In this document: one piece after another, positions 977 through 40,033 of the stretch
Layout: each line of letters starts with the position of its first letter
How positions within the stretch are numbered: the stretch's first letter is position 1
Source: Parcubacteria group bacterium
Lineage (GTDB): Bacteria > Patescibacteriota > Minisyncoccia > JACQLN01
Direction: 5' to 3'
Assembly: GCA_016204035.1 (NCBI GenBank)
Contig: JACQLN010000007.1
Span: forward strand, 1 to 44,244
Length of the DNA stretch: 44,244 nucleotides
Position numbers and translations under genes: made by a program
The notes under the pieces: generated by a model
What the model saw: the letters and a program-made list of their open reading frames with translations, nothing else
Told to the model about the DNA's origin: nothing
The model's database searches: none

Positions 977-1060
977 AAGTAACAAGGAAACTTAAAAATA
1001 TATCTTTAAGCATACTCCAGCCACTTCCATTTTACAATCGTTTCCATCCCCATAATCCGT

Positions 1061-1100
1061 AAAATAACAAAACACCCGACTCGCCTAGAGAGTTGGGTGT
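1061..1100 (-). terminator. Rho-independent terminator of rnpB
   Basis: On the - strand: AACACCCAAC-loop-GUCGGGUGUU followed by UUGUUAUUU, immediately after the 3' strand of P1. Confidence 0.7.
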
Positions 1101-1427
1101 TTCTGTTAAGAAAGCCGTAAGCCGAATTCTGTGCCAATTTGTCCTGTGAGTGTGCTAACACGAACAGCTGACAAAATGAGCACCCGCCAAAACTTTTGAC
1201 AAGCAAAAGTTGGGCGGGTCGTCAATTTTGTAGTCGCTCGTCAAACTCGCGAACAAAATTGCGATGATCATTCATCTGGGATCCCGATCGCTCGGAACCT
1301 CTAGCGACTCTTCCGCGATAATAACTGTCATTATCGGGACACGGTCTTGCACCAAGTGGGGTTTACAACCGATCAGTATCGCTACTGACCGAAGTCGCGT
1401 TTGGCGCGACACTTTTCACCTTTTGCC

Positions 1428-1499
1428 GAACCGCAGACGACGCTGACCTTACGCTGACTACGCGGAATTACTTCCGTGTTGATCCGCGTTTGATCTGCG
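1428..1499 (-). repeat. 72-nt repeat unit inside rnpB, copy 1 (P12 position)
   Basis: Near-identical to 1610-1682. Contains GTTGATCCGCGT and internal inverted repeats. Confidence 0.9.
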
Positions 1500-1609
1500 T
1501 GATTCAGCGGCTGGTTAGTATAGTCTCTGTTGCGAGCGCTCACGAAATCAGCTGACATCCATGAACGCACCTCCAACGTTATGTCGGAGACTTTCCCTGG
1601 GCTTCTTCC

Positions 1610-1682
1610 AAACCGCAGACCGACGCTGACTTTACGCTGACTACGCGGAATTACTTCCGTGTTGATCCGCGTTTGATCTGCG
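1610..1682 (-). repeat. 73-nt repeat unit inside rnpB, copy 2
   Basis: Direct repeat of 1428-1499 with a 1-nt indel and about 2 substitutions. Confidence 0.9.
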
Positions 1683-1937
1683 TCTTCCGCGATATGGGTT
1701 ACTCCCGGTTGCATTTCGCAACCACTTTTTTGCCAATTTCATCTGAAGCGTTAGCGAAGCTATGAAATTGAGCACCCCGCGAAGCCCGTTAGGGCGAAGC
1801 GGGGTCCACCGTCGCTAAAGCTATGGTGGACGCTCAATTTTGTAATTGCTCGCCAAGCTCGCGAACAAAATAGGCGGTGTTCGGACTTTCCTCTCCAACG
1901 CAACGTCGGAGCGATCATCTCACTTTCTTAACATTTT

Positions 1938-1966
1938 AATGATACTCCATAAAAAGTCCTGGGTCA
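1938..1966 (-). promoter_or_regulatory. Sigma70-type promoter of rnpB
   Basis: - strand: TTGACC (rc of 1961-1966), 17-nt spacer, TATCAT (rc of 1938-1943), then 7 nt to the first base of P1. Confidence 0.6.
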
Positions 1967-2041
1967 AACATGGGTATCGGATATGTATCTTAACCTAAAC
2001 AACCTAGATCAGCGGGGTCAAATCTTTCCGATTATCACCCA

Positions 2042-2085
2042 TATCTTACTATCAACCATACGATCGTATGATAAATAGTAATATA
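2042..2085. promoter_or_regulatory. 44-bp palindrome centred on CATACGATCGTATG, downstream flank of the wHTH-Cas2-like gene
   Basis: A perfect 14-bp palindrome lies at 2057-2070. The outer arms TATCTTACTAT and TAGTAATATA are symmetric. Confidence 0.85.
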
Positions 2086-2125
2086 TAATCAGATCTAAAA
2101 ATAGCATGGTTTAGTAAATTTATAA

Positions 2126-2659
2126 CTAAAATATATCAATAGTACCTTTTTTATCAACACTCACTATATGAACTTTACCTTGAAGTCTTAAATCTTTCAA
2201 AGATTTAAGAAAATCCTCCGGCAAAGGACTATACCCAATCCAAACACTCCTTTGAAGTTGACTATAACCACAACCAGTTAATTCATCCCTTATCAAATCC
2301 CTTTTTCTTCTTTCCATTTCGGGAATATCATACATCACCAACCGTGGAATACCGTCTGGTTTAATTGCTTTCTTAAAATTCAAACCGACACTAATTTTTT
2401 CCTTGCCTTTTGGTGTTAAAACCCAACTAGCCCAACGCCGATCACTTTTTTTAGCTATAAGACCTTGCTGACGTAAACGAGTAAGCACAGCCGAAAAATT
2501 AGGCCGGGAAAATTCATAACCATCGGGCAACCCTAAAACTCTACGCCACATTTTACCCTCAACGCGATTACGCGGGAACAAACTTTCTAAAGATAATTCC
2601 CCAACTTCAGAAATTTTCTCTAAGACAATCCTGGAAAAATTTTTAACTTTATCATTCAT
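2126..2659 (-). CDS. Winged-helix (PaaX-like N-terminus) fused to a Cas2-like ferredoxin-fold domain; paralog 1
   Basis: 177-aa ORF. The C-terminal part, IPRLVMYDIPEMERRKRDLIRDELTGCGYSQLQRSVWIG, matches the Cas2 beta1-alpha1-beta2 signature (hhhhYDI...R..l...L...G...lQ.SVa). The N-terminal ~95 aa look like a wHTH domain. Roughly half the residues are identical to the 39506-40033 product by eye. Confidence 0.7.
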   Translation of the reverse strand: MNDKVKNFSRIVLEKISEVGELSLESLFPRNRVEGKMWRRVLGLPDGYEFSRPNFSAVLTRLRQQGLIAKKSDRRWASWVLTPKGKEKISVGLNFKKAIKPDGIPRLVMYDIPEMERRKRDLIRDELTGCGYSQLQRSVWIGYSPLPEDFLKSLKDLRLQGKVHIVSVDKKGTIDIF

Positions 2660-2678
2660 TTTTTTAATCCTTAATATC

Positions 2679-2721
2679 TATATTACTACTTTATTACGAT
2701 CGTATAAAGTATAGTAAGATA
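2679..2721. promoter_or_regulatory. 43-bp palindrome centred on TACGATCGTA, upstream flank (putative operator) of the wHTH-Cas2-like gene
   Basis: Core at 2695-2704, 36 bp upstream of the start codon. The arms mirror those of the 2042-2085 site. Confidence 0.8.
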
Positions 2722-2780
2722 GATTATGCATAATATGTGTTGGGTATATATGTCGAGTATATTTGAATACAGACACTGTC

Positions 2781-2815
2781 TAAAATAAAACCTCGCGTGG
2801 TAAAAACACGCAAGG
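2781..2815 (-). terminator. Rho-independent terminator
   Basis: - strand: CCUUGCGUG-UUUUUAC-CACGCGAGG (9 bp, one G.U pair) followed by UUUUAUUUU. Confidence 0.6.
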
Positions 2816-3090
2816 TTCGGTTCTTTTCCGACAATATAATAGACGGGGGCATGCAAGACGTGAGTAGGAATCCAGTGATCTCCGCCTTGTCCCTTTACTG
2901 CCAACTGCGGCACTGCATTGGTGATACACCCTTTAGCAAGGATCCTGCCGGCGTACGATCTTCGTCGTCGTCATCATTTCGATCGTCTCCGCTTAGCTTC
3001 AACCTTTTTAAGAGAAGGTGCTTTTACAGAGTGCCGGCATCACGAATCCATTGGAAGGGTTGGATTCCATTCCAAGGCGCCCCCGTCTAT
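2782..3090 (-). ncRNA. Candidate structured non-coding RNA of unknown class (~300 nt)
   Basis: This 450-bp gap has no credible ORF. A 12-bp perfect long-range helix joins ATAGACGGGGGC (2839-2850) to GCCCCCGTCTAT (3079-3090). Several nested complementary pairs follow (GGAAUCCA/UGGAUUCC, GCCGGCACU/AGUGCCGC, CGCCUUG/CAAGGCG). It ends at the terminator above. Strand assignment is tentative. Confidence 0.35.
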
Positions 3091-3113
3091 ATCCTGCTTA
3101 AAAAGAACACAAA

Positions 3114-3566
3114 TTACAATAATTTCTCGCTTTCTCCTTTGCCGTCCAGCGCCTGGTTGACCAGTTCGTCGGCCCGTTTATTGGCTTCACGCGGAATTGA
3201 TTTAAAAATAAGCTTACCGAAATCAAACTTAAGATTCCAGACCTTCATGAACAACACCTGCATTCTTTCTTCGTTAACCTTGTATTCACCGGCCAGTTGC
3301 GAAGCGATAAGTTCGCTGTCTACCCTAAATTCCACCATCAAATTTTTGGTTTTTTCTTTGCCAAAAAATTGTTTCAATTTTTTCAAAGCAAAAATTACCG
3401 CTTCGTATTCGGCTTCGTTGTTGGTGGAAATATCTTCCAGTTTAGCGCCGTATTCTTTTAATTTTTGACCGGACTCGTTTAATACCACCACGCCCACCGC
3501 CGCCGGGCCGGGATTACCCCTGGAACCGCCGTCGGTATAAACAATGATTTTAGAGTTTTTAATCAT
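3114..3566 (-). CDS. rnhA: Ribonuclease HI
   Basis: MIKNSKIIVYTDGGSRGNPGPAA...NNEAEYEAVIFAL...VDSELIASQL...REANKRADELVNQA is a typical RNase H1 motif set. The start was moved to M37 of the track ORF because the upstream part covers a repeat element. Confidence 0.85.
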   Translation of the reverse strand: MIKNSKIIVYTDGGSRGNPGPAAVGVVVLNESGQKLKEYGAKLEDISTNNEAEYEAVIFALKKLKQFFGKEKTKNLMVEFRVDSELIASQLAGEYKVNEERMQVLFMKVWNLKFDFGKLIFKSIPREANKRADELVNQALDGKGESEKLL

Positions 3567-3667: not shown

Positions 3668-5428
3668 TCAACAAGAAGTGGTTCTGACACTATCCAGTTT
3701 TTTATAATCAACAAGCTTTAATTGTATCTCCTTACTGTCGTTCCATTCATTTTCATCCAATTCGTAAACCACATCTAAAGTGTCGCCGATTTTGAAATCT
3801 TCGGCAAGTCCGTTGTGCCGGAAAAATAAAATCGGAAATTCTTTGCCGGTTTTTTTATCATGGGCGAAAATTTTAAGATGAGCTCCGTTTTGCCCCAATA
3901 AAACCAGTTTTCTAACCTCAACATTTTTGGTTAAAAACCTGGGTTTAGGATTAGCCAGGCCAAACGGTTCAAATTTTTCCAGCAAACCCATTAAATCCCA
4001 GTTGATTTCGCCAAAAGAAACTTCGGCGTTTATATTCAGCTTTTTTCTTAATAATTCCGGAGTTAAAACTTTTTGGGCGTACTCGTTTAATTTTTCTCTT
4101 ATCGTTTCTTCGTCTTCCGCCTTAAAAGTAGAGCCCGCGGCCGCCGGGTGGCCGCCGTATTTTACCAAATATTTAGAAACATAATTGAGGGCATCTATTA
4201 AACTGAAACCGTTTACACTGCGCAACGACCCCCGGCACAAGCCATCGTCTCTTTTTTCAAAAATAAGCGCTGGCCGGTAATACTTTTCCGAGGCCTTAGC
4301 CGCGACCAAGCCGACCAAGGTCAGCGGCCAAGCCGGAGATCCTTCCATTATAAATATGGGAATTTGAGAACGCTTTAATATGGCGACATCAAGTTCTTTT
4401 AATATTTTTTCCGTAATCCGCTGGCGTTCGCGGTTGTTCTGGTTCAAAGTTATTACCAGTTCTTGAATTTTAGATTCGTCGGGAGAATTCAAAAGTTCGT
4501 AAGCCAGATTGGCATGGGCCATGCGACTGGCCGCGTTCAAACGCGGGCCCAAAGAAAAACCCAAAGTCATGGCATCCAAATTGGTTGATAACGTTTCAAG
4601 GTTGTGCCGGGCTTTGATGCCAGACGACTCCATAAGCATTTGCAAACCGACCCTTTTTGTTTTAGCTAGAACAAAAAGCCCGTATTTAACAAAAACCCTG
4701 TTTTCGCCCAGCAGCGGCACCATATCGGCCACCGTGGCCAGAGCCACCAAATCTAAAAGCCATTTGCTTTTACCCTCCGAAGCTTTATGCGTAGGAGGGC
4801 TACTTTGAGTCAAACCGAGATACAGCTTAAACGCCAGGCCGGTGCCGCACAAATCCTTAAACGGATAACTATCGCCTGTTTGGTGCGGATTTATGAAGGC
4901 CGCCGCGGCCGGCCGGCCGACAATAACCTTATGATGATCCACCACGATCATATCTACGCCGCGGTCTTTAGCCCATTGCACTTCTTTATTATTGGTAGTG
5001 CCGCAATCCAAAGTTACAATCAAGTTGGCGCCGGCCGCGGCCAACTGTTCCAGAGCATTCTGATTAACCCCATGTCCTTCTTTCTGCCGGTCAGGTAAGT
5101 AGATCTCGAAAGGATAATTTATACCCCTAAAATACTCGCTTAAAACCGTGGCCGCCGAAACACCGTCCACATCGTAGTCGGAATAGATAACAATTTTTTC
5201 TTTGGCCAGAACGGCCTTATGGATGCGTTCGCAGGCCAACCGCATGTCTTTTAATAAAAAAGGGTCGTGGAGATCCCGTTCGTACTCCGGCTTAAAAAAC
5301 CGATCTATTTTTTCGGCGCTATCCAAACCGCGCTCCCAAAGTAATTGGGGTATAATCGAAAAATATTGCTTAAATTCGGACAAAAAGTCAGAAGGTGGAG
5401 CAGGCGATAAATCCCAACGGTATTTCAT
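3668..5428 (-). CDS. recJ: Single-stranded-DNA-specific exonuclease RecJ
   Basis: 586 aa, with DHH (YSDYDVDG, DHH) and DHHA1 (GGHPAAAG) motifs. Confidence 0.9.
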   Translation of the reverse strand: MKYRWDLSPAPPSDFLSEFKQYFSIIPQLLWERGLDSAEKIDRFFKPEYERDLHDPFLLKDMRLACERIHKAVLAKEKIVIYSDYDVDGVSAATVLSEYFRGINYPFEIYLPDRQKEGHGVNQNALEQLAAAGANLIVTLDCGTTNNKEVQWAKDRGVDMIVVDHHKVIVGRPAAAAFINPHQTGDSYPFKDLCGTGLAFKLYLGLTQSSPPTHKASEGKSKWLLDLVALATVADMVPLLGENRVFVKYGLFVLAKTKRVGLQMLMESSGIKARHNLETLSTNLDAMTLGFSLGPRLNAASRMAHANLAYELLNSPDESKIQELVITLNQNNRERQRITEKILKELDVAILKRSQIPIFIMEGSPAWPLTLVGLVAAKASEKYYRPALIFEKRDDGLCRGSLRSVNGFSLIDALNYVSKYLVKYGGHPAAAGSTFKAEDEETIREKLNEYAQKVLTPELLRKKLNINAEVSFGEINWDLMGLLEKFEPFGLANPKPRFLTKNVEVRKLVLLGQNGAHLKIFAHDKKTGKEFPILFFRHNGLAEDFKIGDTLDVVYELDENEWNDSKEIQLKLVDYKKLDSVRTTSC

Positions 5429-5627: not shown

Positions 5628-6803
5628 TCAAGATTGATTTTCCAACGCAATAATCCCGGGTAATTCTTCTCCAGCTAAAAATTCCAGCATGGCTCCGCCG
5701 CCGGTGGAAACGTAAGTCATTTTATCTATTAAATTTTCTTCGGTCAAAAAACTTATTAAATCTCCCCCGCCGATTATTTTCTCGCCACGGCTTTCGGCTA
5801 CCGCCTTAGCCACCACCAGCGACCCTTTTTTGAAAGCGGGAACTTCGGTCAGACCCAGCGACCCGTTCCAAATAATCATTCTGGCACTTTTTATAACTTT
5901 TTCAAAAAGAGCCATGGTGTCGGGGCCAATATCAATAATAAATTCATTTTCTCCAACTCGCCCGATCGGCCGCACATTCAAACCATCCGGTCGATTCAGC
6001 GACCGGGAAACAGCCACGTCCACGGGCAGATGCAGATGATTGGAAACTATATCCATTTTTCTTGCCTCACTTACCAGATTTTCATCCACCATGGATTTAC
6101 CCACGGCGAGACCGCGGGCATAAAGCAGGGTGTTGGCCAAAACTCCCCCCAAAAGAATACCGTCCGATTTATCCAAAAACTCCTTAACTAATTTTAATTT
6201 GGTGTCGGCCTTGGCTCCGCCCATTATCAGCACCAGCGGCCGGCGGGGTTGGGCGCGAACCATGGATAAAACGGCTATTTCTTTTTCCAGTAAAAAACCG
6301 GCGTATGATTTTAAGAATTTGGGCAAGCCGACAATGGAAGCGTGAGCGCGGTGCGAAGCCGCGAAAGCGTCGTTAACAAACACATCGCCGTAAGCGCTTA
6401 AACTTTGGGCGAAAGTTTCGTCGTTGGCTTCTTCTTCTTTATAGAAACGAAGGTTCTCCAGTAAAACAGCCCCGCCGTTTTTTAAGTTATTGATTGCTCG
6501 TTCCACAGCAGCGCCTAAAACATCATGGCTGAAGAACAAATCCGCTAGCCACAGTTTTTTAAGCTTTTCAAAAACGGGGTACAAACTATAGTGAAGATCA
6601 TGGCCTCGGGGCCGGCCCAGATGCGCCAAAATAATTATTTTGGCGCCGGCTTGGGCCAAATAATCAAGCGTCGGCACAACCGCGCGAAGCCGCCACTCCG
6701 ACCCCGCCGGCACTTCGCCTTCCTTTATGGGCACGTTAAAATCCACCCGCACCAAAACTTTCTTGCCTTTAACATCACCTATAGATTTTAGAGAAGGCAA
6801 CAT
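5628..6803 (-). CDS. pgk: Phosphoglycerate kinase
   Basis: 391 aa, with VRVDFNVP and GGGDxxx motifs and a full-length PGK layout. Confidence 0.95.
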   Translation of the reverse strand: MLPSLKSIGDVKGKKVLVRVDFNVPIKEGEVPAGSEWRLRAVVPTLDYLAQAGAKIIILAHLGRPRGHDLHYSLYPVFEKLKKLWLADLFFSHDVLGAAVERAINNLKNGGAVLLENLRFYKEEEANDETFAQSLSAYGDVFVNDAFAASHRAHASIVGLPKFLKSYAGFLLEKEIAVLSMVRAQPRRPLVLIMGGAKADTKLKLVKEFLDKSDGILLGGVLANTLLYARGLAVGKSMVDENLVSEARKMDIVSNHLHLPVDVAVSRSLNRPDGLNVRPIGRVGENEFIIDIGPDTMALFEKVIKSARMIIWNGSLGLTEVPAFKKGSLVVAKAVAESRGEKIIGGGDLISFLTEENLIDKMTYVSTGGGAMLEFLAGEELPGIIALENQS

Positions 6804-6819
6804 AAATATATTAAAAAAT

Positions 6820-7560
6820 TTAACGGGAAACAGAAACTATCGCGGCAAATTCCTCGGCGCTAAGCGAAGCGCCGCCAACGAGAGCCCCGTCAATGTAGGG
6901 CTGGCTTAAAAACTTTAGAGCGTTTTCGGAAGTCACCGATCCGCCGTATAAAAACTTTATTTTTTTAGACGGCTCGCCAAACATCTTGAAAGCGGCATGT
7001 TTTAACTCACCGATGATCTGGTTGGACCTGGCGGGGCTATCGGCTTGGGCGCCGGGCGTGGTGCTGATAGCCCAAACCGGTTCGTAAGCCACCGTCAGCC
7101 GAGCCAAGTCGGCCGTTTCCAAACCGGCCGCGCTTTTTTTGAAACTGTCTATAATTTCATCGGCCTCATCGCCCCGCTGAAGCTCGCCCACCGCGGCGAT
7201 AACATTAAAATCCTGCGCTAGCGCGGCTTTGATTTTTTTATTGACATCTTCATCGCTCTCGCCAAAAATCCGCCGGCGTTCGGAATGCCCCACCAACACC
7301 CAGCCAATCCCAACATCTTTAAGCATAGCCAACGAAACTTCACCGGTATAAGCCCCGCGCGCTTCCCAAAAAACATCCTGCGCGCCCCAAGCAATCTGTT
7401 TGAATTTTTTGACCAGTTCCTCCAAAAAAATAAAGGGCGGCAATAAAACCGTCCTTTCAAAATCTTCGGCTTTAATGGCGTAATTGACGCCCGAAGTCAA
7501 CGCTACAGCTTCATTAAGCGTGGACGGATTAAGTTTCCAATTGCCGACTATTAGTTTCAC
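6820..7560 (-). CDS. tpiA: Triosephosphate isomerase (GTG start)
   Basis: 246 aa: GNWKLN, VGHSERR, AYEPVWAI, YGGSV. Confidence 0.95.
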   Translation of the reverse strand: MKLIVGNWKLNPSTLNEAVALTSGVNYAIKAEDFERTVLLPPFIFLEELVKKFKQIAWGAQDVFWEARGAYTGEVSLAMLKDVGIGWVLVGHSERRRIFGESDEDVNKKIKAALAQDFNVIAAVGELQRGDEADEIIDSFKKSAAGLETADLARLTVAYEPVWAISTTPGAQADSPARSNQIIGELKHAAFKMFGEPSKKIKFLYGGSVTSENALKFLSQPYIDGALVGGASLSAEEFAAIVSVSR

Positions 7561-15020: not shown

Positions 15021-17867
15021 ATGGTAGCCAAGATGATCTCACCTAGTTTCAAAAAAGAATTTGATTCTCTAAACCCCGAACAAAAACAAGCGGTAGAGAC
15101 AATTGACGGCCCGGTAATGGTGGTGGCCGGGCCGGGCACGGGCAAAACGCAAATTTTAACTTTGCGCATCGCCAATATTTTAGCTAAAACCGATGCCAAT
15201 CCCGATAATATTTTATCCTTGACTTTTACCGAAGCCGCCGCCGCCAATATGCGCCGCCGGCTCACCCAGCTTATCGGCACACCGGGTTATTACGTTAATA
15301 TCCATACTTTTCACGGATTCTGTCATAAACTGATACGCGAATATCCGGAAAATTTTCCGCGGATAATCGGCGGGACCGCGGCCACTCCCGCCGACCAGAT
15401 CGGACTTGTTAGAAAAATAATAGACTCTAATAAATTAAAATATCTAAAACCATTCGGCCATAAGCATTATTACATACCCGAAATTCTAAAAAGTGTCCGC
15501 CAATTAAAAAATGAAAATATTGATCCGGCGCAATTAAAAAAAACAGCCGGCTCGCCTAGGGTTGTAGAGTTGGCTTGGATCTATCAAAAATACGTTCAGG
15601 GGTTAGTTCAAAAAAAGAAGTATGATTTTGAAGATATGATTTTAGAAACCGTCAGCGCCTTAAGGTTAAACAAAAACTTTTTGCTGGACCTGCAGGAAAA
15701 GCACCAATATATATTGGTAGACGAACACCAAGACACCAACGGCGCCCAAAATAAAATCCTGGAACTTTTAGCCGGTTACGACCCCAACCCGAACCTGTTT
15801 GTGGTGGGCGACGAAAAACAGGCCATCTTCAGATTCCAGGGCGCCAGTTTGGAAAATTTTCTTTACTTTAAGCGTAAGTTTCCCCAAGCCAAAATAATCA
15901 ACTTAAAACACAATTATCGGTCGCGCCAACATATTTTAGACGCTTCGCACAGCTTGATAGAAAAAAACACCGCGGTGCTGGCCCTAACCAAATTGAAAGG
16001 CCAAACCACCGCGCCAGACGCGGTTTTGGGTAAGATTAAAATTGCTTCATTGGGCCAACCGGAAGCCGAATATATGTTTGTGTCGGAAAAAATCAAGGAA
16101 TTGATCAAACAAAAAACGCTCCCGGGCGAAATTGCCGTGTTATACAGAGAAAATAAAGATGCCCCGCCCCTGGCCGATTTTTTATCCCGCCACAACATAC
16201 CCCATGCCGTGGAATCAGACGAAAATATTTTAGATGATATTGAAATCAAAAAAATAAACGTTTTGCTTGAGGCCATAGCCAATTTCGGTAACGATGAAAA
16301 TCTTATAAAAGCCCTGCATCTTGATTTTTTAGGCGTTGATCCGATGACCTTTTACAAAACAACGGCCCGGAACGCATTAAGTTCCAACTTGGATATAATA
16401 AAAAAACTGGCCGGTTGGAAAAAGCTAAGCTATAATTCGGCTTTCCCTAATTTTTTTGAAATAATAATTAACGAATCCGGATTCTTAAAAAATATCCTGG
16501 CCCAACCGAGCTATTATTACAAATTAGACAAACTTAAAATCCTTTTTGGCGAGATTAAAAATCTCGCCGCGGCCGACCTTAATTACAGCTTAGCCGATTA
16601 CATAAAACATATTTCTTTACTTAAAGAGCATAACCTGCCTCTTCGCTCTAAAATTACTTCTCCAACCGGCGTTGTGCGTTTAATGACCGCCCATAAAGCC
16701 AAGGGTTTGGAATTCGATTATGTGTTTATAACCGGCGCTTACAACGGCCATTGGGGCAATAAAAGAAACATCCAACATTTTGAACTGCCGCTGGTAAACG
16801 CAACCACGGAAAATATTGCCGACAAAAATGAAGATGAACGACGGCTTTTTTATATGGCTCTCACCCGCGCTCGTAAAAATATATTTATAACCTATACCAC
16901 CTTATCTCCCGAAGCCAGAGAACAGGTTCCCAGCCAGTTTATAAACGAGATTCGGCCTGATCTTAAAGAAGAAATTGACCCTTCGCCTTATCTGGCTAAC
17001 CAAGGTCTGACCTTGATATCAAGGCCGGATCTTGATAGACCAAAAACAGACGAAAAAACCTTGGTTAAAGAGATATTTCTAAAGCATGGCCTTTCACCCA
17101 CCGCCTTAAACAATTATCTGGCCTGCCCTTGGCGTTTTTTCTACGTTAATCTCTTACGGATACCCAAGACCCCAAACCGTCACCAAATTTATGGCACTGC
17201 CAAACACAACACATTGCAGATATTTTTTGACGCTAAAAAAGAAAACAGCAAACTCGGAAGTAAATTTTTAATTGACGGTTTCACCGCCCAATTAAAAAAA
17301 ATCCCGCTGACTCCGGATGATTATCAAGTTTTGCGCCACCGCGGCCGTAAAAGTATACTGGCCTACTACAACTTCTATAAAAATAACTGGAACTACAAAA
17401 CCATAAACGAATTCAAAATCTCGGGCGTTGATTTTCTTATAAATAAAAAACAAACCGTCCGCCTAACAGGTAAACTGGACAAGATTGAACTTGATCCAAA
17501 AAATCGATCAGCCGCGGTGGTGGATTATAAAACCAAAACACCCGAGAGCCGAAACTGGATTTTGGGACAAACCAAAAACTCCAACGGCGACTATTTTAGG
17601 CAATTGGTTTTTTATAAACTTTTAACCGATTCCCTGGCTTCAAAAAAATTTGAAATGGATTTTGGTGTTATAGACTTTACCGAGCCCGATACCCAAGGGC
17701 GCTTTAGAAAAGAAACTTTTCAAATCTCTAACGCCGATGTTGCGTTGTTAAAAGAAACCATCGCCCGCGCGAGCGATGAAATTATAAATCTAAAATTTTG
17801 GGATTCCCGTTGTAACCAAAAAGACTGCGAATTTTGCGAATTACGGGAACTGATGAGGAAAAAATAA
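15021..17867 (+). CDS. UvrD/PcrA-type superfamily 1 helicase fused to a C-terminal PD-(D/E)xK (Cas4/AddB-like, Cys-cluster) nuclease
   Basis: 948 aa. Helicase motifs are AGPGTGKT, DEHQDTN, VGDEKQAIFRFQGA and TAHKAKGLEFD. The C-terminus has CPWRFF, VVDYKT, QLVFY and CNQKDCEFC. Confidence 0.85.
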   Translation: MVAKMISPSFKKEFDSLNPEQKQAVETIDGPVMVVAGPGTGKTQILTLRIANILAKTDANPDNILSLTFTEAAAANMRRRLTQLIGTPGYYVNIHTFHGFCHKLIREYPENFPRIIGGTAATPADQIGLVRKIIDSNKLKYLKPFGHKHYYIPEILKSVRQLKNENIDPAQLKKTAGSPRVVELAWIYQKYVQGLVQKKKYDFEDMILETVSALRLNKNFLLDLQEKHQYILVDEHQDTNGAQNKILELLAGYDPNPNLFVVGDEKQAIFRFQGASLENFLYFKRKFPQAKIINLKHNYRSRQHILDASHSLIEKNTAVLALTKLKGQTTAPDAVLGKIKIASLGQPEAEYMFVSEKIKELIKQKTLPGEIAVLYRENKDAPPLADFLSRHNIPHAVESDENILDDIEIKKINVLLEAIANFGNDENLIKALHLDFLGVDPMTFYKTTARNALSSNLDIIKKLAGWKKLSYNSAFPNFFEIIINESGFLKNILAQPSYYYKLDKLKILFGEIKNLAAADLNYSLADYIKHISLLKEHNLPLRSKITSPTGVVRLMTAHKAKGLEFDYVFITGAYNGHWGNKRNIQHFELPLVNATTENIADKNEDERRLFYMALTRARKNIFITYTTLSPEAREQVPSQFINEIRPDLKEEIDPSPYLANQGLTLISRPDLDRPKTDEKTLVKEIFLKHGLSPTALNNYLACPWRFFYVNLLRIPKTPNRHQIYGTAKHNTLQIFFDAKKENSKLGSKFLIDGFTAQLKKIPLTPDDYQVLRHRGRKSILAYYNFYKNNWNYKTINEFKISGVDFLINKKQTVRLTGKLDKIELDPKNRSAAVVDYKTKTPESRNWILGQTKNSNGDYFRQLVFYKLLTDSLASKKFEMDFGVIDFTEPDTQGRFRKETFQISNADVALLKETIARASDEIINLKFWDSRCNQKDCEFCELRELMRKK

Positions 17868-17964
17868 AAACATCATTCCGAGCGACTTCAAGGAGGTTCC
17901 AGTTAAATTATAAAGAGGGAGGATGGAAGAGCCCCTCCTTGCAGGAGCGAGGGGTGATGTTTTT
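17866..17964. repeat. Structured intergenic element, type 1, copy B, between convergent genes
   Basis: Closing stem AAAAACATCATTCC/GGGGTGATGTTTTT (two T.G pairs) with T-runs on both sides. It could terminate both the helicase gene and rpoD. Confidence 0.9.
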
Positions 17965-17972
17965 ATGCAAAG

Positions 17973-19172
17973 CTAATATTCTTTTAACTTTTGTATCCTC
18001 TCGTGCGCGCGAATTTTGTCTAAGGCCTTGGCTTCTATTTGACGGATGCGCTCGCGGGTTACGCCAAACTCTTTGCCCACCTCCTCAAGCGTATGCGTGG
18101 CTCCATCTTCCAAACCAAAACGCATCTGCAGAATTTTTTGTTCGCGGGGCGAAAGATCGGTAATAATTTCTTTTATTTGATCGCGCAACAGTTGATGCGC
18201 CGCCACCTGCGAAGGCAATAAAGTTTTTTCGTCTTCAATAAGTTCGCCTAAAGTGCTATCTTCGTCGCTGTCGCCCACCGGAGATTCCAACGACACGGCC
18301 TCCTGGGTTATTTTTTGGATATGGCGAACCTTGGTAACGTCAATATCCATTTCCTGGGCGATCTCTTCGGCCAATGGTTCGCGGCCCAAATCCTGCAACA
18401 ACCGCCGCTTAACCTGGGTATATTTGGAAATAGTTTCCACCATATGCACCGGAATACGGATGGTGCGGGCCTGATCGGCCAAGGCCCGGGTAACCGCCTG
18501 GCGGATCCACCAGGTGGCATAAGTGGAAAATTTATAACCCTTGCGGTAATCAAATTTTTCCACGGCCTTGGTTAAACCGATATTGCCCTCTTGAATCAAA
18601 TCTAAAAGGGTTAAGTGCGAACTCCGCCCCACGTATTTTTTGGCAATGGAAACCACTAAGCGTAAATTGGCCTGGGTCAGTTTTTGGCGGGCGTCTTCGT
18701 CGTTTTTTTCTATCCGTTTGGCCAATTCCACTTCTTCCGGACCGCGCAACAACGGCACCCGGCCGATTTCACGCAAATAAATTTGCACGGAATCATAAAC
18801 CGGCCCGGTACCGGCCCCGGTCTCGCTTTTCTTAAGCCGTTCTTTGTCGGGCGGCGCCACCGCAAGCCGTTCTTGGGAACCTACCACTTTTATATTTAAG
18901 GTTTCCAGGTGCCGGTACAGATGTTCCAAACCGGAAATATCTTCTTCTATATTGGGAAAGGTTTGGATAATTTCGGATTCCGTGATAAAACCCCGGCTCC
19001 GGCCCCGCCTAACAATATCGGCTAATTTTTCTTCGGTAACAATAGAGGGCTTGGTTTTGGAACGAGTGTGTTTTTTAGGCCTGATTTTGGTTGAATGCTT
19101 TTTAGCCGGCCGGGACGGTTTATTTTTTTTAATAAAACGGCGCGATTTATTTTTACGTTTATTTTTTTTCAT
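17973..19172 (-). CDS. rpoD: Primary RNA polymerase sigma factor
   Basis: 399 aa with regions 1.2 to 4.2 ([41 protein letters not shown]) and a basic N-terminal tail. Confidence 0.9.
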
Positions 19173-19320
19173 ATTTTGTTCGTGAGCGTTAGCGAGCGAT
19201 TACCCGCCTGCCTTGAGTTCGCCGCTATGTTGCCACTGATGATATAACCTTATTGCAACCATCAATCATCTTTGACAACAATATGCTCAAGGCGAAGTCG
19301 GGCAGGCAAAATATAGATAA

Positions 19321-21132
19321 TTATAACTCGGATAATTTTTTAGAACTTTCGCTGAACTCTTTAAGCAAAAGTTCCAAAGCCGCCGCGTCGGATGCGGTTT
19401 CGGCTTTTTTAATATCGGTTTGGATCAACTTGAGTTTAGATTGTAAATACTGTTTTTTTAAGCCCTTTAGAGTTTGGACAAATTCGGCCTCCGGATCAAT
19501 ATTAAAATCAACCAACATTTCGCTCATAAGAACTATGGACGAAGGGGTTGTGTCCGGAATTGTTTTTCCTGAATCTGCCGCCAGACTTTTGGCCAATGAA
19601 AATAATTCGGGGCGGGAAAAGAGTTCCATTTCCTCGTCGCCCAAGCGGCTCTTTAAGTCTGGGTATCTTATTAATAAAGATAGCAGATATTCTTCTTGAC
19701 GCCAACCCGCGAGATTGTGCCGGCCTTCCGGCTTAGCCGCTAAAACGCCGACGGGCTGGCTTGATCCAGAATCCTGAACAGGTAAACGTTTTATTTCCGC
19801 GGCTAAAATTTCTTTGCCAACCTCCGCGCGGCGCGACAGTTCTTCCAACCAATAATCCCTCTCTAAAGGCGAAACTATACTTTTTATAAAAGGCAAAACA
19901 TTAGATAAAACAATTCTTTTGGCTTCCAGTGTTCCCGTGAAACCGCGCAAAGACCGATTCATTATATGTTCCAGGTACGGCACTGGATTGGCCGCGACTT
20001 TAAGCCACGAATCTGGATCTTCTTTAACGGCATCGGCGGTGTCCTTGCCTAAAGGGATGGAAATTACCGACACATTAAGCCCGGCCGACATGGCTAAAAC
20101 GACTCCTTTTTTTAAGGCATTATCGCCGGCTTCATCGGCGTCAAAGGCCAGATTCAATTTCTCGGTGTACCTTTTTATAATACGGGTATGGGCCACAGTT
20201 AAAGCCGTGCCGCAGGTGGCCACCGCGTTCTTGACTCCGGCCTGGTGCGACATAATCACATCTAAAGTGCCTTCCACCAAAATACAGCCGGCATCCCTAA
20301 AATAAGTTTTGGCCTTATCCAAACCGTAAAGCAATTGGGATTTGTCGTAAAGAATCGTGCCGGGAGTATTAACATACTTGCCGGCATCGGCATGAACGGT
20401 TTGGCTTTTTATTTTTTCAAAAATACGGCCGGTAAAACCCACCACCTGGCTCTGGCTCGTGGTTATGGGAAACATAAGGCGGTGCCGAAACCGATCGTGA
20501 TATCTTGACGCGGATTCGCGCGGATCTTGACGCGGATTTACGCTGATATTTCCATCGGCGTTGATCCGCGTATCCATCGGCGTTGATCCGCGTTCAACAG
20601 CAAGACCGGCCGCCGTTATTTCTTTGTCTTCGTAACCCTCGGAATTCAAAAAATTTGTCAGCGACTGCCAAGTATCGGGCGCCCAACCGATCCTAAAATT
20701 TTTAACGGATTCGGGTGTAAGACCCCTGTCTTTAAGATAACCCGCGGCCTGGCGGCCGGTTTGGGACATCAGCTGGCGTTCAAAAAATTTGGCCGCGAGT
20801 TCGCAAATTTCATACATCCGCTTGCGCTGGGAATTTAGTTGGGGATCCTGTTTGGCCAGTTTGACGCCGGCGCGTTCGGCCAACAGGCGCAAAACGTCGG
20901 GAAACTCCAAACCCTCCATTTTGGAAACAAATGAAAAAATATCCCCGCCTTCGCCGCAACCAAAACAGTGCCACATTTGGCGCGCGGGAGTTACCACAAA
21001 CGACGGCGTTTTTTCGTTATGGAAAGGGCATAAACCCCTCCAGTAAGCGCCGGCCTTTTGCAGTTTTAGATACCCTTGGATAACTTCGGCCACATCCAAA
21101 CGGCTTTTGATTTCCTCGGTGGAAGACATCAT
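19321..21132 (-). CDS. dnaG: DNA primase
   Basis: 603 aa with the Zn finger CPFHNEKTPSF...CFGCG, DRFRHRLMFPI, and a TOPRIM region (ILVEGTLD, FDADEAG). Confidence 0.9.
   Translation of the reverse strand: MMSSTEEIKSRLDVAEVIQGYLKLQKAGAYWRGLCPFHNEKTPSFVVTPARQMWHCFGCGEGGDIFSFVSKMEGLEFPDVLRLLAERAGVKLAKQDPQLNSQRKRMYEICELAAKFFERQLMSQTGRQAAGYLKDRGLTPESVKNFRIGWAPDTWQSLTNFLNSEGYEDKEITAAGLAVERGSTPMDTRINADGNISVNPRQDPRESASRYHDRFRHRLMFPITTSQSQVVGFTGRIFEKIKSQTVHADAGKYVNTPGTILYDKSQLLYGLDKAKTYFRDAGCILVEGTLDVIMSHQAGVKNAVATCGTALTVAHTRIIKRYTEKLNLAFDADEAGDNALKKGVVLAMSAGLNVSVISIPLGKDTADAVKEDPDSWLKVAANPVPYLEHIMNRSLRGFTGTLEAKRIVLSNVLPFIKSIVSPLERDYWLEELSRRAEVGKEILAAEIKRLPVQDSGSSQPVGVLAAKPEGRHNLAGWRQEEYLLSLLIRYPDLKSRLGDEEMELFSRPELFSLAKSLAADSGKTIPDTTPSSIVLMSEMLVDFNIDPEAEFVQTLKGLKKQYLQSKLKLIQTDIKKAETASDAAALELLLKEFSESSKKLSEL
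20504..20595. repeat. Hairpin-repeat insertion, in frame within dnaG
   Basis: Tandem TCCATCGGCGTTGATCCGCGT x2 (20551-20571 and 20573-20593) plus three inverted ACGCGGAT-type (GCGCGGAT in the middle copy) units. It encodes ...STPMDTRINADGNISVNPRQDPRESAS... just before the conserved YxDRFRxRxMFPI block. Confidence 0.8.
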
Positions 21133-26961: not shown

Positions 26962-27059
26962 TCCGCGGTAGCTCAGAGTGTTGAAGGTACCTCTTCAACC
27001 GGCAGAGCCGCCAGCCGCGAGCTGGCAGGTCGGTGGTTCAAGTCCACCCCGCGGAACCA
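26962..27059 (+). tRNA. tRNA-Arg(GCG)-like gene with a 20-nt hairpin inserted in the D-loop and C at position 33
   Basis: Manual fold. The acceptor is TCCGCGG/CCGCGGA with A73 and an encoded CCA. The D stem is GCTC/GAGC, with the hairpin at 26980-26999 inside the loop. The anticodon stem is GCCAG/CTGGC with loop CCGCGAG. The variable loop is AGGTC and the T arm is GGTGG-TTCAAGT-CCACC. Confidence 0.7.
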
Positions 27060-27113: not shown

Positions 27114-27863
27114 AAGGGCGGTCCTTCCCATAAATTTCCTAAGAATTTTCATTATTTTTATAAGAAAGCCAGTCAAAAACAAAATCTTTGAAGATTCTCT
27201 TTGAACCAAAATAATCCGGAAAAACTTCAGTATTCAAAATTTTCCTTTCCAATCTTTCAATACCAATATAATCAAAATAACTTGAGTAACTGTAATCACT
27301 CAAAAATTTCTGCGCAGCAAAACTATTCTTAATACCAATCTCTTTCCAGTTAGATTCTATCAATTTAATAGGATTCAAATGTATGTAGGCGAAAACATAC
27401 TTTAAATATTCATCTTTACTAATATGTTTTGCCTGAAACCTGCTTTGAAACAAGGAGCCGTCGCGCTCATATTTTTTATTGAAATACATAGAATAGCCAG
27501 TGGATACTTTACCCATAAATTTAGAAACACCTCCGACTTCTGTTTCTTTTACAAGTAAATGAAAATGATTCGGCATGAGTACATAAGCGCCTAGAGCAGT
27601 AATAAGGTCACCAGTATCTATGGACAGAATATCCCGGAAGGACCGCCCTTCCTGAATATGCTCTGCAATATCAACAGGATTGTTGCTATTGCAGAGATAA
27701 AGAAGCATTAAAAAACGTCTATAATCCATATCTGAACCAAATATAAACCTCTTATCTACACCCCGATTATAGATGTGATAATATTCATCCAAAGAAAAAT
27801 CAAAACCACGTTCCATATAACCTATTATAATCCCTTAGGAAATTTATGGGAAGGGCGGTCCTT
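27114..27863 (-). mobile_element. IS200/RAYT-like unit: a Y1 transposase gene bracketed by composite repeats
   Basis: A 17-bp perfect inverted repeat is present: CCCATAAATTTCCTAAG (27127-27143) with CTTAGGAAATTTATGGG (27834-27850). A 13-bp direct repeat AAGGGCGGTCCTT lies at 27114-27126 and 27851-27863. Confidence 0.65.
27139..27816 (-). CDS. IS200-like / REP-associated tyrosine (Y1, HUH) transposase
   Basis: 225 aa: YHIYNRG, HUH motif MPNHFHLLV, catalytic Tyr region YIHLNP. TATAAT lies 7 nt upstream of the ATG (leaderless). Confidence 0.8.
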   Translation of the reverse strand: MERGFDFSLDEYYHIYNRGVDKRFIFGSDMDYRRFLMLLYLCNSNNPVDIAEHIQEGRSFRDILSIDTGDLITALGAYVLMPNHFHLLVKETEVGGVSKFMGKVSTGYSMYFNKKYERDGSLFQSRFQAKHISKDEYLKYVFAYIHLNPIKLIESNWKEIGIKNSFAAQKFLSDYSYSSYFDYIGIERLERKILNTEVFPDYFGSKRIFKDFVFDWLSYKNNENS

Positions 27864-39505: not shown

Positions 39506-40033
39506 ATGAAAGTTAAGAAAGGTTTGGTTACAAAATTCATTCTTGAGAAACTAGCCGAGGTAAATGAGTTGGCTCTGGAAGCCATGTTCCCCAGAAACAG
39601 GGCCGAGGGCCGGCTCTGGAGAACAATTTTTGGCCTACCAGCATATTATGAATTTTCTAAAGATAATTTCTCAGCGACATTGAGCCGGCTAAAGAGCCAA
39701 GGTTTAGTGGATAAATTAGGTGGTAAAAAATATGCCAAGTGGCGTTTAACACTCAAAGGTAAAAATAAACTTGGTTCTCTTAAAATGGACTTAATTAAAC
39801 CCGATGGAATTCCACGGTTGGTGATGTACGATGTTCCCGAAAAAGAAAGAAGAAAAAGGGATTTATTAAGATTAGAACTGGTAGCTTGTAACTATCAACA
39901 ACTTCAAAGAAGTGTCTGGCTGGGTTATTCTCCCTTGCCAGAAAAGTTCATACAGAGTTTAAGAGATCTTGGTCTTAAAAATAAGGTTCATATTGTAAGT
40001 ATTAATAAAACCGGAACTTTATCGGAGTTTTAA
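39506..40033 (+). CDS. Winged-helix plus Cas2-like domain protein; paralog 2
   Basis: 175 aa. IPRLVMYDVPEKERRKRDLLRLELVACNYQQLQRSVWLG is colinear with the 2126-2659 product. Confidence 0.7.
   Translation: MKVKKGLVTKFILEKLAEVNELALEAMFPRNRAEGRLWRTIFGLPAYYEFSKDNFSATLSRLKSQGLVDKLGGKKYAKWRLTLKGKNKLGSLKMDLIKPDGIPRLVMYDVPEKERRKRDLLRLELVACNYQQLQRSVWLGYSPLPEKFIQSLRDLGLKNKVHIVSINKTGTLSEF

Follow-up and report, generated by a model that had tools for sequence, protein, structure and literature searches.

An 827-nucleotide RNase P RNA gene in a Parcubacteria bacterium, probably colonized by mobile hairpin elements

What is the additional RNA in an RNase P RNA of about twice the usual length, and how did it come to lie in a ribozyme? 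The question is raised by the rnpB gene on the minus strand (1931..1105, 827 nt) of contig JACQLN010000007.1 of the Parcubacteria group bacterium assembly GCA_016204035.1, positions 1 to 44,244 of which form the stretch of DNA analyzed here (the window). A sequence-only reading had described the locus as an RNase P RNA enlarged by two pairs of paralogous insertion modules. Comparison of landmarks, covariation, and synteny confirmed a genuine rnpB, the RNase P RNA gene of a bacterium of the Parcubacteria (Patescibacteria, or candidate phyla radiation, CPR). In our view, the locus is probably a working rnpB with a type-A-like core that has been colonized by mobile hairpin elements. The length of about 827 nt, twice the usual, holds against a survey of 2772 GenBank genomes in which rnpB spans 250 to 550 nt and type-A RNAs have a mean of 374 nt (PMC7191817).

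The window gene is the longest among ten members of its Parcubacteria clade, in which rnpB measures 529 nt (L011), 536 nt (L005), 557 nt (L010), 638 nt (L007), 642 nt (L008 and L029), 661 nt (L015), 674 nt (L003), 691 nt (L006), and 827 nt (window). Thus, the nine relatives are already expanded, to 529 to 691 nt. In the window, the excess amounts to about 450 nt and is located at five fixed sites: P5.1, the P9 tip, P10.1, the P12 tip, and P19.

The two P4 strands frame the gene as had been predicted: GAGGAAAGTCCG at 1893-1882 and ACAGAATTCGGCTTA at 1132-1118 on the minus strand have a start-to-start distance of 761 nt (about 760 nt in the prediction). P1 is a 9-bp helix of TTAAGAAAG (1931-1923) and CTTTCTTAA (1114-1106). 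Other landmarks follow in the right order, namely GCAACAGAGA (1533-1524), AGGTGAAAAGTG (1421-1410), GTAAACCCCAC (1366-1356), GGTGCAAGACC (1353-1343), and AGATGAATGA (1277-1268), in line with the order GCAACAGAGA, AGGUGAAAAGUG, GUAAACCCCAC..GGUGCAAGACC, and AGAUGAAUGA of a type-A sequence, and P13, P14, P15, and P18 covary. For the covariation test, nine orthologues were aligned, and a hand-built core structure of 85 pairs was compared with 500 shuffles and slid controls. In this alignment, 98.8% of the cells are paired and 23 of the 85 pairs have both partners changed; not one of the 500 shuffles did as well, and the slid controls reached 32 to 44%. Compensatory pairs were seen in P1, P2, P7 (two), P8 (one), P9, P13, P14, P15, and P18. 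P1, P2, P5, and P7 are 100% paired, with P5 invariant, and all 8 positions of P4, in which AAG(U)CCGAA with its bulged U faces UUCGGCUU, are paired in eight of the nine orthologues. In L003 (about 3949-3956), UUAGGCUU replaces UUCGGCUU in the 3' strand of P4 and produces one G.A mismatch, either a sequencing error or a true variant. P1, P2, and P7 pair across the insertions, which places the outer strands in a single fold.

The Rfam model RF00010 found nothing in the window at its gathering threshold (100 bits). Relaxed settings gave 57.1 bits over 1627..1207, with P4 misplaced onto an inner GGGAAAGUC, while the orthologues L005 (112.9 bits) and L029 (116.9 bits), which have the same architecture, pass the threshold; the low score of the window is explained by its large inserts. 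A covariance model had been proposed as the check on whether the two P4 strands join in one fold. RF00010 itself does not join the outer strands of the window, but covariation in the core and the two relatives above threshold establish the fold. The inner GGGAAAGUC (about 1597-1589) was also considered as a second P4 or a nested rnpB and was rejected: it pairs poorly with the 3' strand, the flanking helices back the outer strands, and the inner GGGAAAGU agrees with the Rfam consensus GGAaAGu for the 5' strand of P10/P11.

On the minus strand, the 5' core (1931..1876) contains the 5' strands of P1 (1931-1923) and P2 (1919-1913), the P3 hairpin (1911-1893), and the 5' strands of P4 (AAG(U)CCGAA, 1888-1880) and P5 (CACC, 1879-1876). 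The 5' strand of P7 (1727-1723) and the P8 hairpin (1722-1708), both placed by covariation, occupy 1727..1708. The base of P9, within 1706..1599, pairs GGG (1706-1704) with CCC (1601-1599), and in 1596..1531 the P10/P11 5' strand GG-AAA-GU (1596-1590) is followed by two hairpins, X1 and X2, and by GCA of P11 (1533-1531). The remaining core (1421..1263) holds J12/13 (AGGUGAAAAGUG), P13 (1410-1394), P14 (1391-1370), the 3' strands of P11, P10, P7, and P5 (1367-1350), P15-P17 (1346-1306), P18 (1299-1279), J18/2 (AGAUGAAUGA, 1277-1268), and the 3' strand of P2 (1269-1263). The 3' end (1132..1105) consists of ACAGAA and the 3' strands of P4 (UUCGGCUU, 1126-1119) and P1 (1114-1106).

With class A (RF00010), the RNA shares P1-P5, P7-P15, P18, a P4 with a bulged U, and the strings GAGGAAAGUCC, ACAGAGA, GGUGAAA, GUAAAC, AGAUGAAUGA, and ACAGAA..GGCUUA. 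It differs from class A in its 827 nt, in extra structures at P5.1, P10.1, and P19, in that no GGU motif was seen, by eye, on the 3' side of the P15-P17 region, and in its score below the RF00010 threshold, which two relatives exceed. Structures at P5.1, P10.1, and P19 are typical of type B. However, class B RNAs, which possess P5.1, P10.1, P15.1, and P19, lack P13, P14, P16, and P17, whereas P13 and P14 are present here and covary; no P15.1 was identified in the window rnpB. A cyanobacterial origin, prompted by the missing GGU motif, was rejected as well: GCGATCGC occurs only once in the 44 kb, and the homologue names are those of Parcubacteria.

Four of the five expansion sites are named here A (after the 5' strand of P5, the P5.1 position), B (P9 tip), C (P12 tip), and D (the interval between the 3' strands of P2 and P4, the P19 position). 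Sites A and D carry copies of T1, a multi-hairpin module of about 130 to 146 nt across copies without an open reading frame (ORF). Copy A (1875..1732, minus strand, 144 nt) lies between the 5' strands of P5 and P7, and copy D (1262..1133, minus strand, 130 nt) lies between the 3' strands of P2 and P4. The sequence-only reading was right that two homologous modules exist; it had given both three hairpins and placed the 5' one directly after P4, whereas copy A has four hairpins and follows the 5' strand of P5, and the 3' module fills the P2-to-P4 interval. The two copies are 64 to 76% identical, depending on the treatment of gaps, because their central hairpins differ. The compensatory stem change that had been noticed between them was located in both modules, as TTTCAT/ATGAAA (1767-1762 / 1742-1737) in copy A and TTTGTC/GACAAA (1175-1170 / 1143-1138) in copy D. 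Across six copies of T1, compensatory changes preserve its helices at 14 of 43 pairs.

Sites B and C carry T2, a long imperfect hairpin of about 80 to 95 nt made of ACGCGGAU-like units and their complements. Copy B extends P9 (82-nt repeat 1683-1602, extended hairpin 1695-1608, minus strand), and copy C (82-nt repeat 1500-1420, minus strand) constitutes nearly all of P12 (1420..1514). Two direct repeats, one of them at P12, had been reported from the sequence; their length is 82 nt rather than 72 to 73, and the first sits at the P9 tip. They are 94% identical overall and 98% identical over a 63-nt core. A 183-nt tandem duplication of the specificity domain was rejected as their source: relatives without T2 at the P9 tip retain the same flanks, so that the likeness of the flanks is that of native P8/P9/P10 and only the 82-nt element is truly shared. 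All four inserted copies fold more stably than their shuffles (T1 copy A, -64.3 kcal/mol, z = -6.1; T1 copy D, -49.8 kcal/mol, z = -5.2; T2 copy B, -37.4 kcal/mol, z = -5.3; T2 copy C, -37.4 kcal/mol, z = -5.0). A 110-aa ORF inside rnpB (1382-1714, minus strand) crosses both T2 copies and reads QTRINTEVIPRSQRKVSV twice, resembling the TRINADG...NPRQDPRESA insert of DnaG (see below). It is probably not a gene, and these features indicate that T2 tends to keep one or more of its reading frames open.

The attribution of the excess to two paralogous pairs is largely right, but it omitted a fifth source, X1 (1589-1571) and X2 (1568-1536), clade-specific hairpins at the P10.1 position on the minus strand. 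Both are present in all nine orthologues, and X2 covaries (GCG/CGC, AGG/CCU, and AUG/CAU). Judging by this distribution, X1/X2 is an old clade-wide trait, and sites A to D hold exchangeable elements of at least three families.

The content of sites A to D changes rapidly among relatives. T1 occupies A and D in the window and in L006, A in L004, and D in L003, L008, L015, and L029; it is missing at A in L003, L005, L008, and L015. T2 occupies B and C in the window and A, C, and D in L007, with a short form at A in L003. A third family, T3, is found at D in L005 and at A in L010, and an AT-rich element unrelated to T2 is found in P12 of L003 and L015. Only hairpins of 17 to 21 nt exist at D in L010 and at A and D in L011, those at D measuring 21 nt in both; the P9 tip of L003 bears just a 19-nt hairpin, and P12 of L005 and L006 is short and plain. 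Presence/absence polymorphism thus separates close relatives: the cores of the window and L003 are 96% identical, yet sites A, B, and C hold different sequence, while the T1 copies at D are 97.7% identical (94 to 98% among close relatives). Between more distant hosts, elements can be more alike than the genes that carry them. L003 and L015, with cores of 81.2% identity, have P12 elements that agree at 94.3%; the T3 copies of L005 (site D) and L010 (site A) are 85.9% identical, in cores that share 73.4%.

Related copies also exist outside rnpB. In the window, a third T2-family hairpin (20506..20594) lies in frame in dnaG (ORF 19321-21132, minus strand); it matches the T2 of L007 at 76% (BLASTn), has folding z scores of -5.3 and -7.7, and splits the DNAG_N domain, which makes the protein 23 to 24 residues longer there than the solved primase 5guj. 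A fragment of T1 hairpin a (19172..19203, plus strand, 87.5% over 32 nt) is intergenic, downstream of dnaG, so that the 44 kb contain two T1 copies and one fragment. In L006, lepA (17263-19539) has an in-frame insert of about 150 aa (17462-17915) encoding a PD-(D/E)XK nuclease (PDDEXK_3), which is flanked by T2-like inverted arms and splits the GTPase domain; LepA has 758 aa in L006 versus 617 aa in L005, and a T3 hairpin lies upstream of the gene. The elements show the terminal inverted repeats, hairpin fold, and lack of an ORF of MITEs (miniature inverted-repeat transposable elements) as well as of Rickettsia palindromic elements (RPEs), with the lepA relative in L006 carrying an ORF.

A metagenome scan with the 3' arm of T2 yielded ten contigs, in four of which the hairpin is inside an rRNA gene (three 23S genes and one 16S gene). 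One insert, of 125 nt, sits at the tip of a 23S hairpin and has an outer stem that matches the base of the element in P12 of L003 and L015. An extended hairpin at a helix tip, the form of an intervening sequence (IVS), is found for T2 at P9 and P12 and for a T2-like hairpin once at a 23S tip. The metagenomic rRNA genes L039 (316-3466), L043 (2087-5982), and L044 (1765-5645) combine T2-like hairpins with group I introns and are much lengthened, as in L043, where about 3.4 kb covers about 2.0 kb of the 23S model. A scan of the metagenomes with a T1 hairpin-a pattern gave no match, the window itself likewise being unmatched.

An inner hairpin of T1, CTTCGCYCTAACRRGCTTCGC, with a UUC/UUC internal loop and a UAAC loop, has a distribution of its own. 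A scan of genome contigs recovered it, hardly altered, from 24 species representatives that belong to very different phyla (L012-L035). It lies 3 nt past tmRNA genes in L017 (three tandem copies) and also in L025, just after a tRNA-Leu gene in L018, in the vicinity of genes for tRNA-Ala and tRNA-His, and, in L028, 22 nt upstream of a 16S gene; in L017 and L026 it adjoins small ORFs that, judging from their sequence, are GIY-YIG-like. No Rfam family covers it.

Taken together, the swift turnover at sites A to D, the element identities that exceed those of the hosts, and the copies outside rnpB favor mobility. We infer that the elements are IVS/MITE-like mobile hairpins lodged at permissive sites of the ribozyme rather than purely intragenic duplications. 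The sequence-only reading had left it open whether the RNA was colonized by, or built from, repeat modules; the copies in dnaG, lepA, and rRNA genes and the swaps between sites point to colonization.

How might such colonization proceed? The elements would enter rnpB as DNA and persist only at places where the fold leaves room for a projecting helix; the five sites would allow such helices without disturbing P4 or the P2/P5/P7 frame. There, elements may be gained, lost, and swapped between sites and lineages. As each would close on itself, the core pairings, and with them the ribozyme core, should still be able to form. Three routes are candidates: (i) homing driven by a nuclease of the type that the lepA copy encodes, (ii) allelic recombination through the highly conserved core flanks, and (iii) the action of nearby Y1 transposase-like genes. 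In regard to the last, an IS200-like Y1 transposase-family ORF is present in the window (27166-27786, minus strand); it is 36% identical to a protein of L011, whose gene (6586-7254) is immediately upstream of rnpB. This Y1 gene is a possible mobilizer of the hairpin elements.

The window Y1 ORF adjoins an odd tRNA gene (26962-27059, plus strand), which ARAGORN calls a 98-nt tRNA-Gly(ACC) and in which Rfam detects no tRNA at the gathering threshold. Removal of a 20-nt D-loop hairpin (GTTGAAGGTACCTCTTCAAC) leaves a canonical 78-nt tRNA-Arg(GCG) with an encoded CCA. A D-loop hairpin insert would be unusual in a bacterial tRNA gene and would fit the theme of inserts in structured RNAs.

Several observations weigh against colonization of a working rnpB by mobile elements. 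The transcription of the locus and the size of its mature RNA are predictions from the DNA. Of the three T2 clusters in the 44 kb from which dispersal is judged, two are in rnpB itself. No clear target-site duplication or defined terminus was found at the element ends, and a tBLASTn search of all loci with the 23S_rRNA_IVP, PDDEXK_3, and Y1 proteins revealed no general adjacency to the widespread hairpin. T1 at site D is 96.6% identical among close relatives, versus 90.1% for the core, and sites A and D hold a hairpin or more in each of the ten genes; both would fit a vertically inherited functional domain. In addition, independent support for the assembly stops before the T2 copy at P12, because the Logan contigs end inside the first repeat.

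Even if the elements are mobile, they might be cut out after transcription, as IVSs are cut from 23S rRNA by RNase III, and the ribozyme would then be an assembly of base-paired RNA pieces. We regard this variant of the colonization model as possible but doubtful. At the P9 and P12 tips, T2 forms a long hairpin; similar hairpins occur in 23S and 16S rRNA genes, and a bacterial RNase P RNA can be reconstituted in vitro from separate pieces. Moreover, short CPR 23S inserts without ORFs occur at known RNase III IVS sites (PMC11270868). On the other hand, the stems of T2 are interrupted every 3 to 5 bp, which makes them poor RNase III substrates, and T1 consists of several hairpins without a long duplex; both the sequence and the helices of T1 are as conserved as the core, which is unexpected for a discarded spacer. 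Since translation of dnaG runs in frame through its copy, excision is not common to the whole family. We infer that the elements are tolerated in the mature RNA, with a difference between families. Retention is more likely than excision for T1, given its multi-hairpin form, its core-like conservation, and its natural accessory-helix positions, whereas excision is a serious possibility for T2, given its IVS-like shape and its relatives in rRNA genes.

Alternatively, the modules may be lineage-specific functional domains, protein binding or involved in tertiary contacts, that arose by duplication within the gene and were never mobile. The paralogous pairs within one gene, the compensatory changes that maintain the T1 helices, the identity of T1 at site D at or above that of the core, and the hairpins at A and D in every gene would all agree with this, as would the sites themselves, since P5.1, P10.1, and P19 are natural positions of accessory helices (PMC12974513). 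Against these stand the related copies in dnaG, lepA, 23S, and 16S genes and in intergenic DNA, the three unrelated families at the same site in different genomes, the element identities above core identity between distant hosts, and the closest relative (L003), which lacks three of the four elements of the window. We therefore consider an origin as purely functional domains unlikely.

It is very improbable that the gene is a decayed or untranscribed copy whose work is done by a normal-sized rnpB elsewhere. The RF00010 score of 57 bits against a threshold of 100 would suit decay, and the search for a second rnpB covered only 44 kb of the genome. But the core shows purifying selection and compensatory change across nine syntenic orthologues, P4 and the other conserved regions have stayed intact, conservation extends to the promoter and terminator, and expanded genes occupy the same locus in all relatives. 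No second RF00010 match was found in the window or in the locus of any relative examined, and low scores are common in this group, since CPR RNase P RNAs often fall below Rfam thresholds (PMC8172020).

We give equally little weight to an artefact of metagenome assembly. The T2 copies are 94 to 98% identical, and short-read contigs do break within them. However, two independent Sequence Read Archive assemblies, L001 and L002, are 100% identical to the window over 3400..1654, a region that includes the T1 module at site A and the junction of P9 into the first 82-nt repeat; the unique segments between the repeats occur once each, in the same order as in the relatives; and L006 independently carries T1 at both A and D, while L007 has three T2 copies, one of them in P12. 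Finally, self-splicing introns or self-cleaving ribozymes, for which the frequency of group I introns in CPR rRNA genes (PMC11270868) might speak, can practically be dismissed, as an Rfam search of 900-2200 gave no match to an intron or ribozyme family at a cutoff as loose as E <= 10 and simple hairpins of 80 to 145 nt are too small for group I or group II introns.

How does the preferred reading, colonization by mobile hairpins, compare with what is known? A short tandemly repeated repetitive (STRR) family reportedly occurs in helix P12 of cyanobacterial RNase P RNA (Vioque 1997, as cited in PMC2858038). The likeness lies in a genome-wide repeat family that colonizes a peripheral helix while function is kept; however, STRRs are heptanucleotide tandem repeats in one helix, whereas the present elements are structured, 80 to 145 nt long, and belong to several families at four sites. 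In Candida glabrata, the nuclear RNase P RNA of 1149 nt is the largest described (Kachouri et al. 2005, as cited in PMC3001073) and resembles the window RNA in being enlarged several-fold by big insertions at few sites around a conserved core. It differs in being eukaryotic. Repetition or mobility of its inserts has, to our knowledge, not been reported. RPEs, of which Rickettsia felis has 728, with 85 in ORFs and 3 in RNA genes (PMC1166351), are likewise small palindromes that invade noncoding DNA, ORFs in frame, and RNA genes, but their lineage and sequences are unrelated, and the elements described here are few and concentrated in one RNA gene.

The closest counterparts are in the CPR itself. 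Insertions are present in 48% of the 16S and 82% of the 23S rRNA genes of CPR bacteria (Tsurumaki et al. 2024, PMC11270868). Many are short (<200 bp), lack ORFs, lie at stem-loop tips, and are suspected to be RNase III-type IVSs; the ORFs associated with the insertions are LAGLIDADG, GIY-YIG, and 23S_rRNA_IVP; their sporadic distribution suggests horizontal transfer (PMC11270868). The window elements share with them the hairpin at the helix tip of an essential structured RNA and the association with nuclease or 23S_rRNA_IVP ORFs, but the host here is RNase P RNA, which is absent from that survey. CPR RNase P RNAs have themselves been described by Lui et al. (2021, PMC8172020) as scoring below threshold, with "large extensions of helices," and as lacking the UGG/GGU motif in 23 of 35 CPR genomes. 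The window RNA shares with these the superphylum, the subthreshold score, the helix extension, and the missing motif. That work mentions missing helices and an extended P15 but no repeated or interchangeable modules, polymorphism of insertion sites, or links to elements at other places in the genome, and the section drawn on here states no sizes. The length of P19 is known to vary (PMC12974513). Our literature searches turned up no bacterial rnpB with interchangeable hairpin cassettes at several sites, nor a direct precedent for IVS/MITE elements in a bacterial rnpB or for GxxExxY together with an intervening sequence. The novelty claimed in the sequence-only reading was to fall if comparably expanded RNAs were already known for the lineage. 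The expanded CPR RNAs of PMC8172020, the nine relatives of 529 to 691 nt, and the known CPR rRNA insertions have reduced but not removed it.

The setting of the gene agrees with its identification. A sigma-70-like promoter (TTGACC-17 nt-TATCAT, 1939..1967, minus strand), conserved in L003, matches at 10 of 12 positions, is the only such site that a promoter scan found in 1000-2100, and predicts a transcription start at about 1932/1931. Downstream, a terminator-like hairpin read by eye, ACACCCAACUC...GAGUCGGGUGU, is followed by a U-run (1060..1097, minus strand); its stem has one mismatch in the window, because of which a simple terminator scanner did not call it, and is perfect in L003. The framing by promoter, 9-bp P1, and terminator had been described beforehand and is borne out. 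The gene order PGK-RecJ-RNase H-(PaaX-like)-rnpB-DUF4012 is kept among relatives, with the syntenic rnpB orthologues placed between the RNase H and DUF4012 genes. RecJ homologues bear names of Parcubacteria, Patescibacteria, or Minisyncoccia; a RecJ-based search of the genome-contig collection returned no relative.

A few features of the neighborhood vary. A gene for a PaaX_M/Cas2-like-domain protein lies directly upstream of rnpB in the window (2126-2659, minus strand), L003, L008, and L010, and a DNA paralogue with 73% identity exists about 37 kb away, at 39793-40018. In L007 (6653-7290), rnpB has the reverse orientation with respect to its conserved neighbors, and a 113-aa ORF that was called on it (6914-7255) is in all probability spurious. 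A 23S_rRNA_IVP gene (four-helix bundle, bAvd-like) adjoins the RNase H gene in L004 (8398-8787, between RecJ and RNase H) and in L015 (2079-2471), while neither the window nor any other locus has it; like the ORFs known from rRNA insertions, it is small and present in some relatives only.

Few ribozymes are universal; RNase P RNA is one of them, and bacterial versions were believed to range from about 250 to 550 nt, while the genes of this clade measure 529 to 827 nt. Our findings extend the insertions known from CPR rRNA genes to a third essential RNA and tie them to in-frame protein inserts, which suggests that the rRNA, rnpB, and protein inserts are a common class of selfish hairpin elements. 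More tentatively, one set of hairpins may home into exposed helices of all major structured RNAs of these ultra-small bacteria, namely 23S, 16S, and RNase P RNA and possibly a tRNA D-loop, and into proteins in frame, in which case this RNase P RNA would be either the largest known bacterial one, its cassettes serving as functional arms, or a split ribozyme whose pieces come together noncovalently once the cassettes are cut out. Standard covariance models miss such rnpB genes, which affects completeness checks of CPR genomes. The locus also raises the question of whether tRNAs are matured by a doubled or a fragmented ribozyme, and its swappable cassettes constitute a natural experiment that reveals which surfaces of the ribozyme tolerate 100 or more nucleotides of extra RNA.

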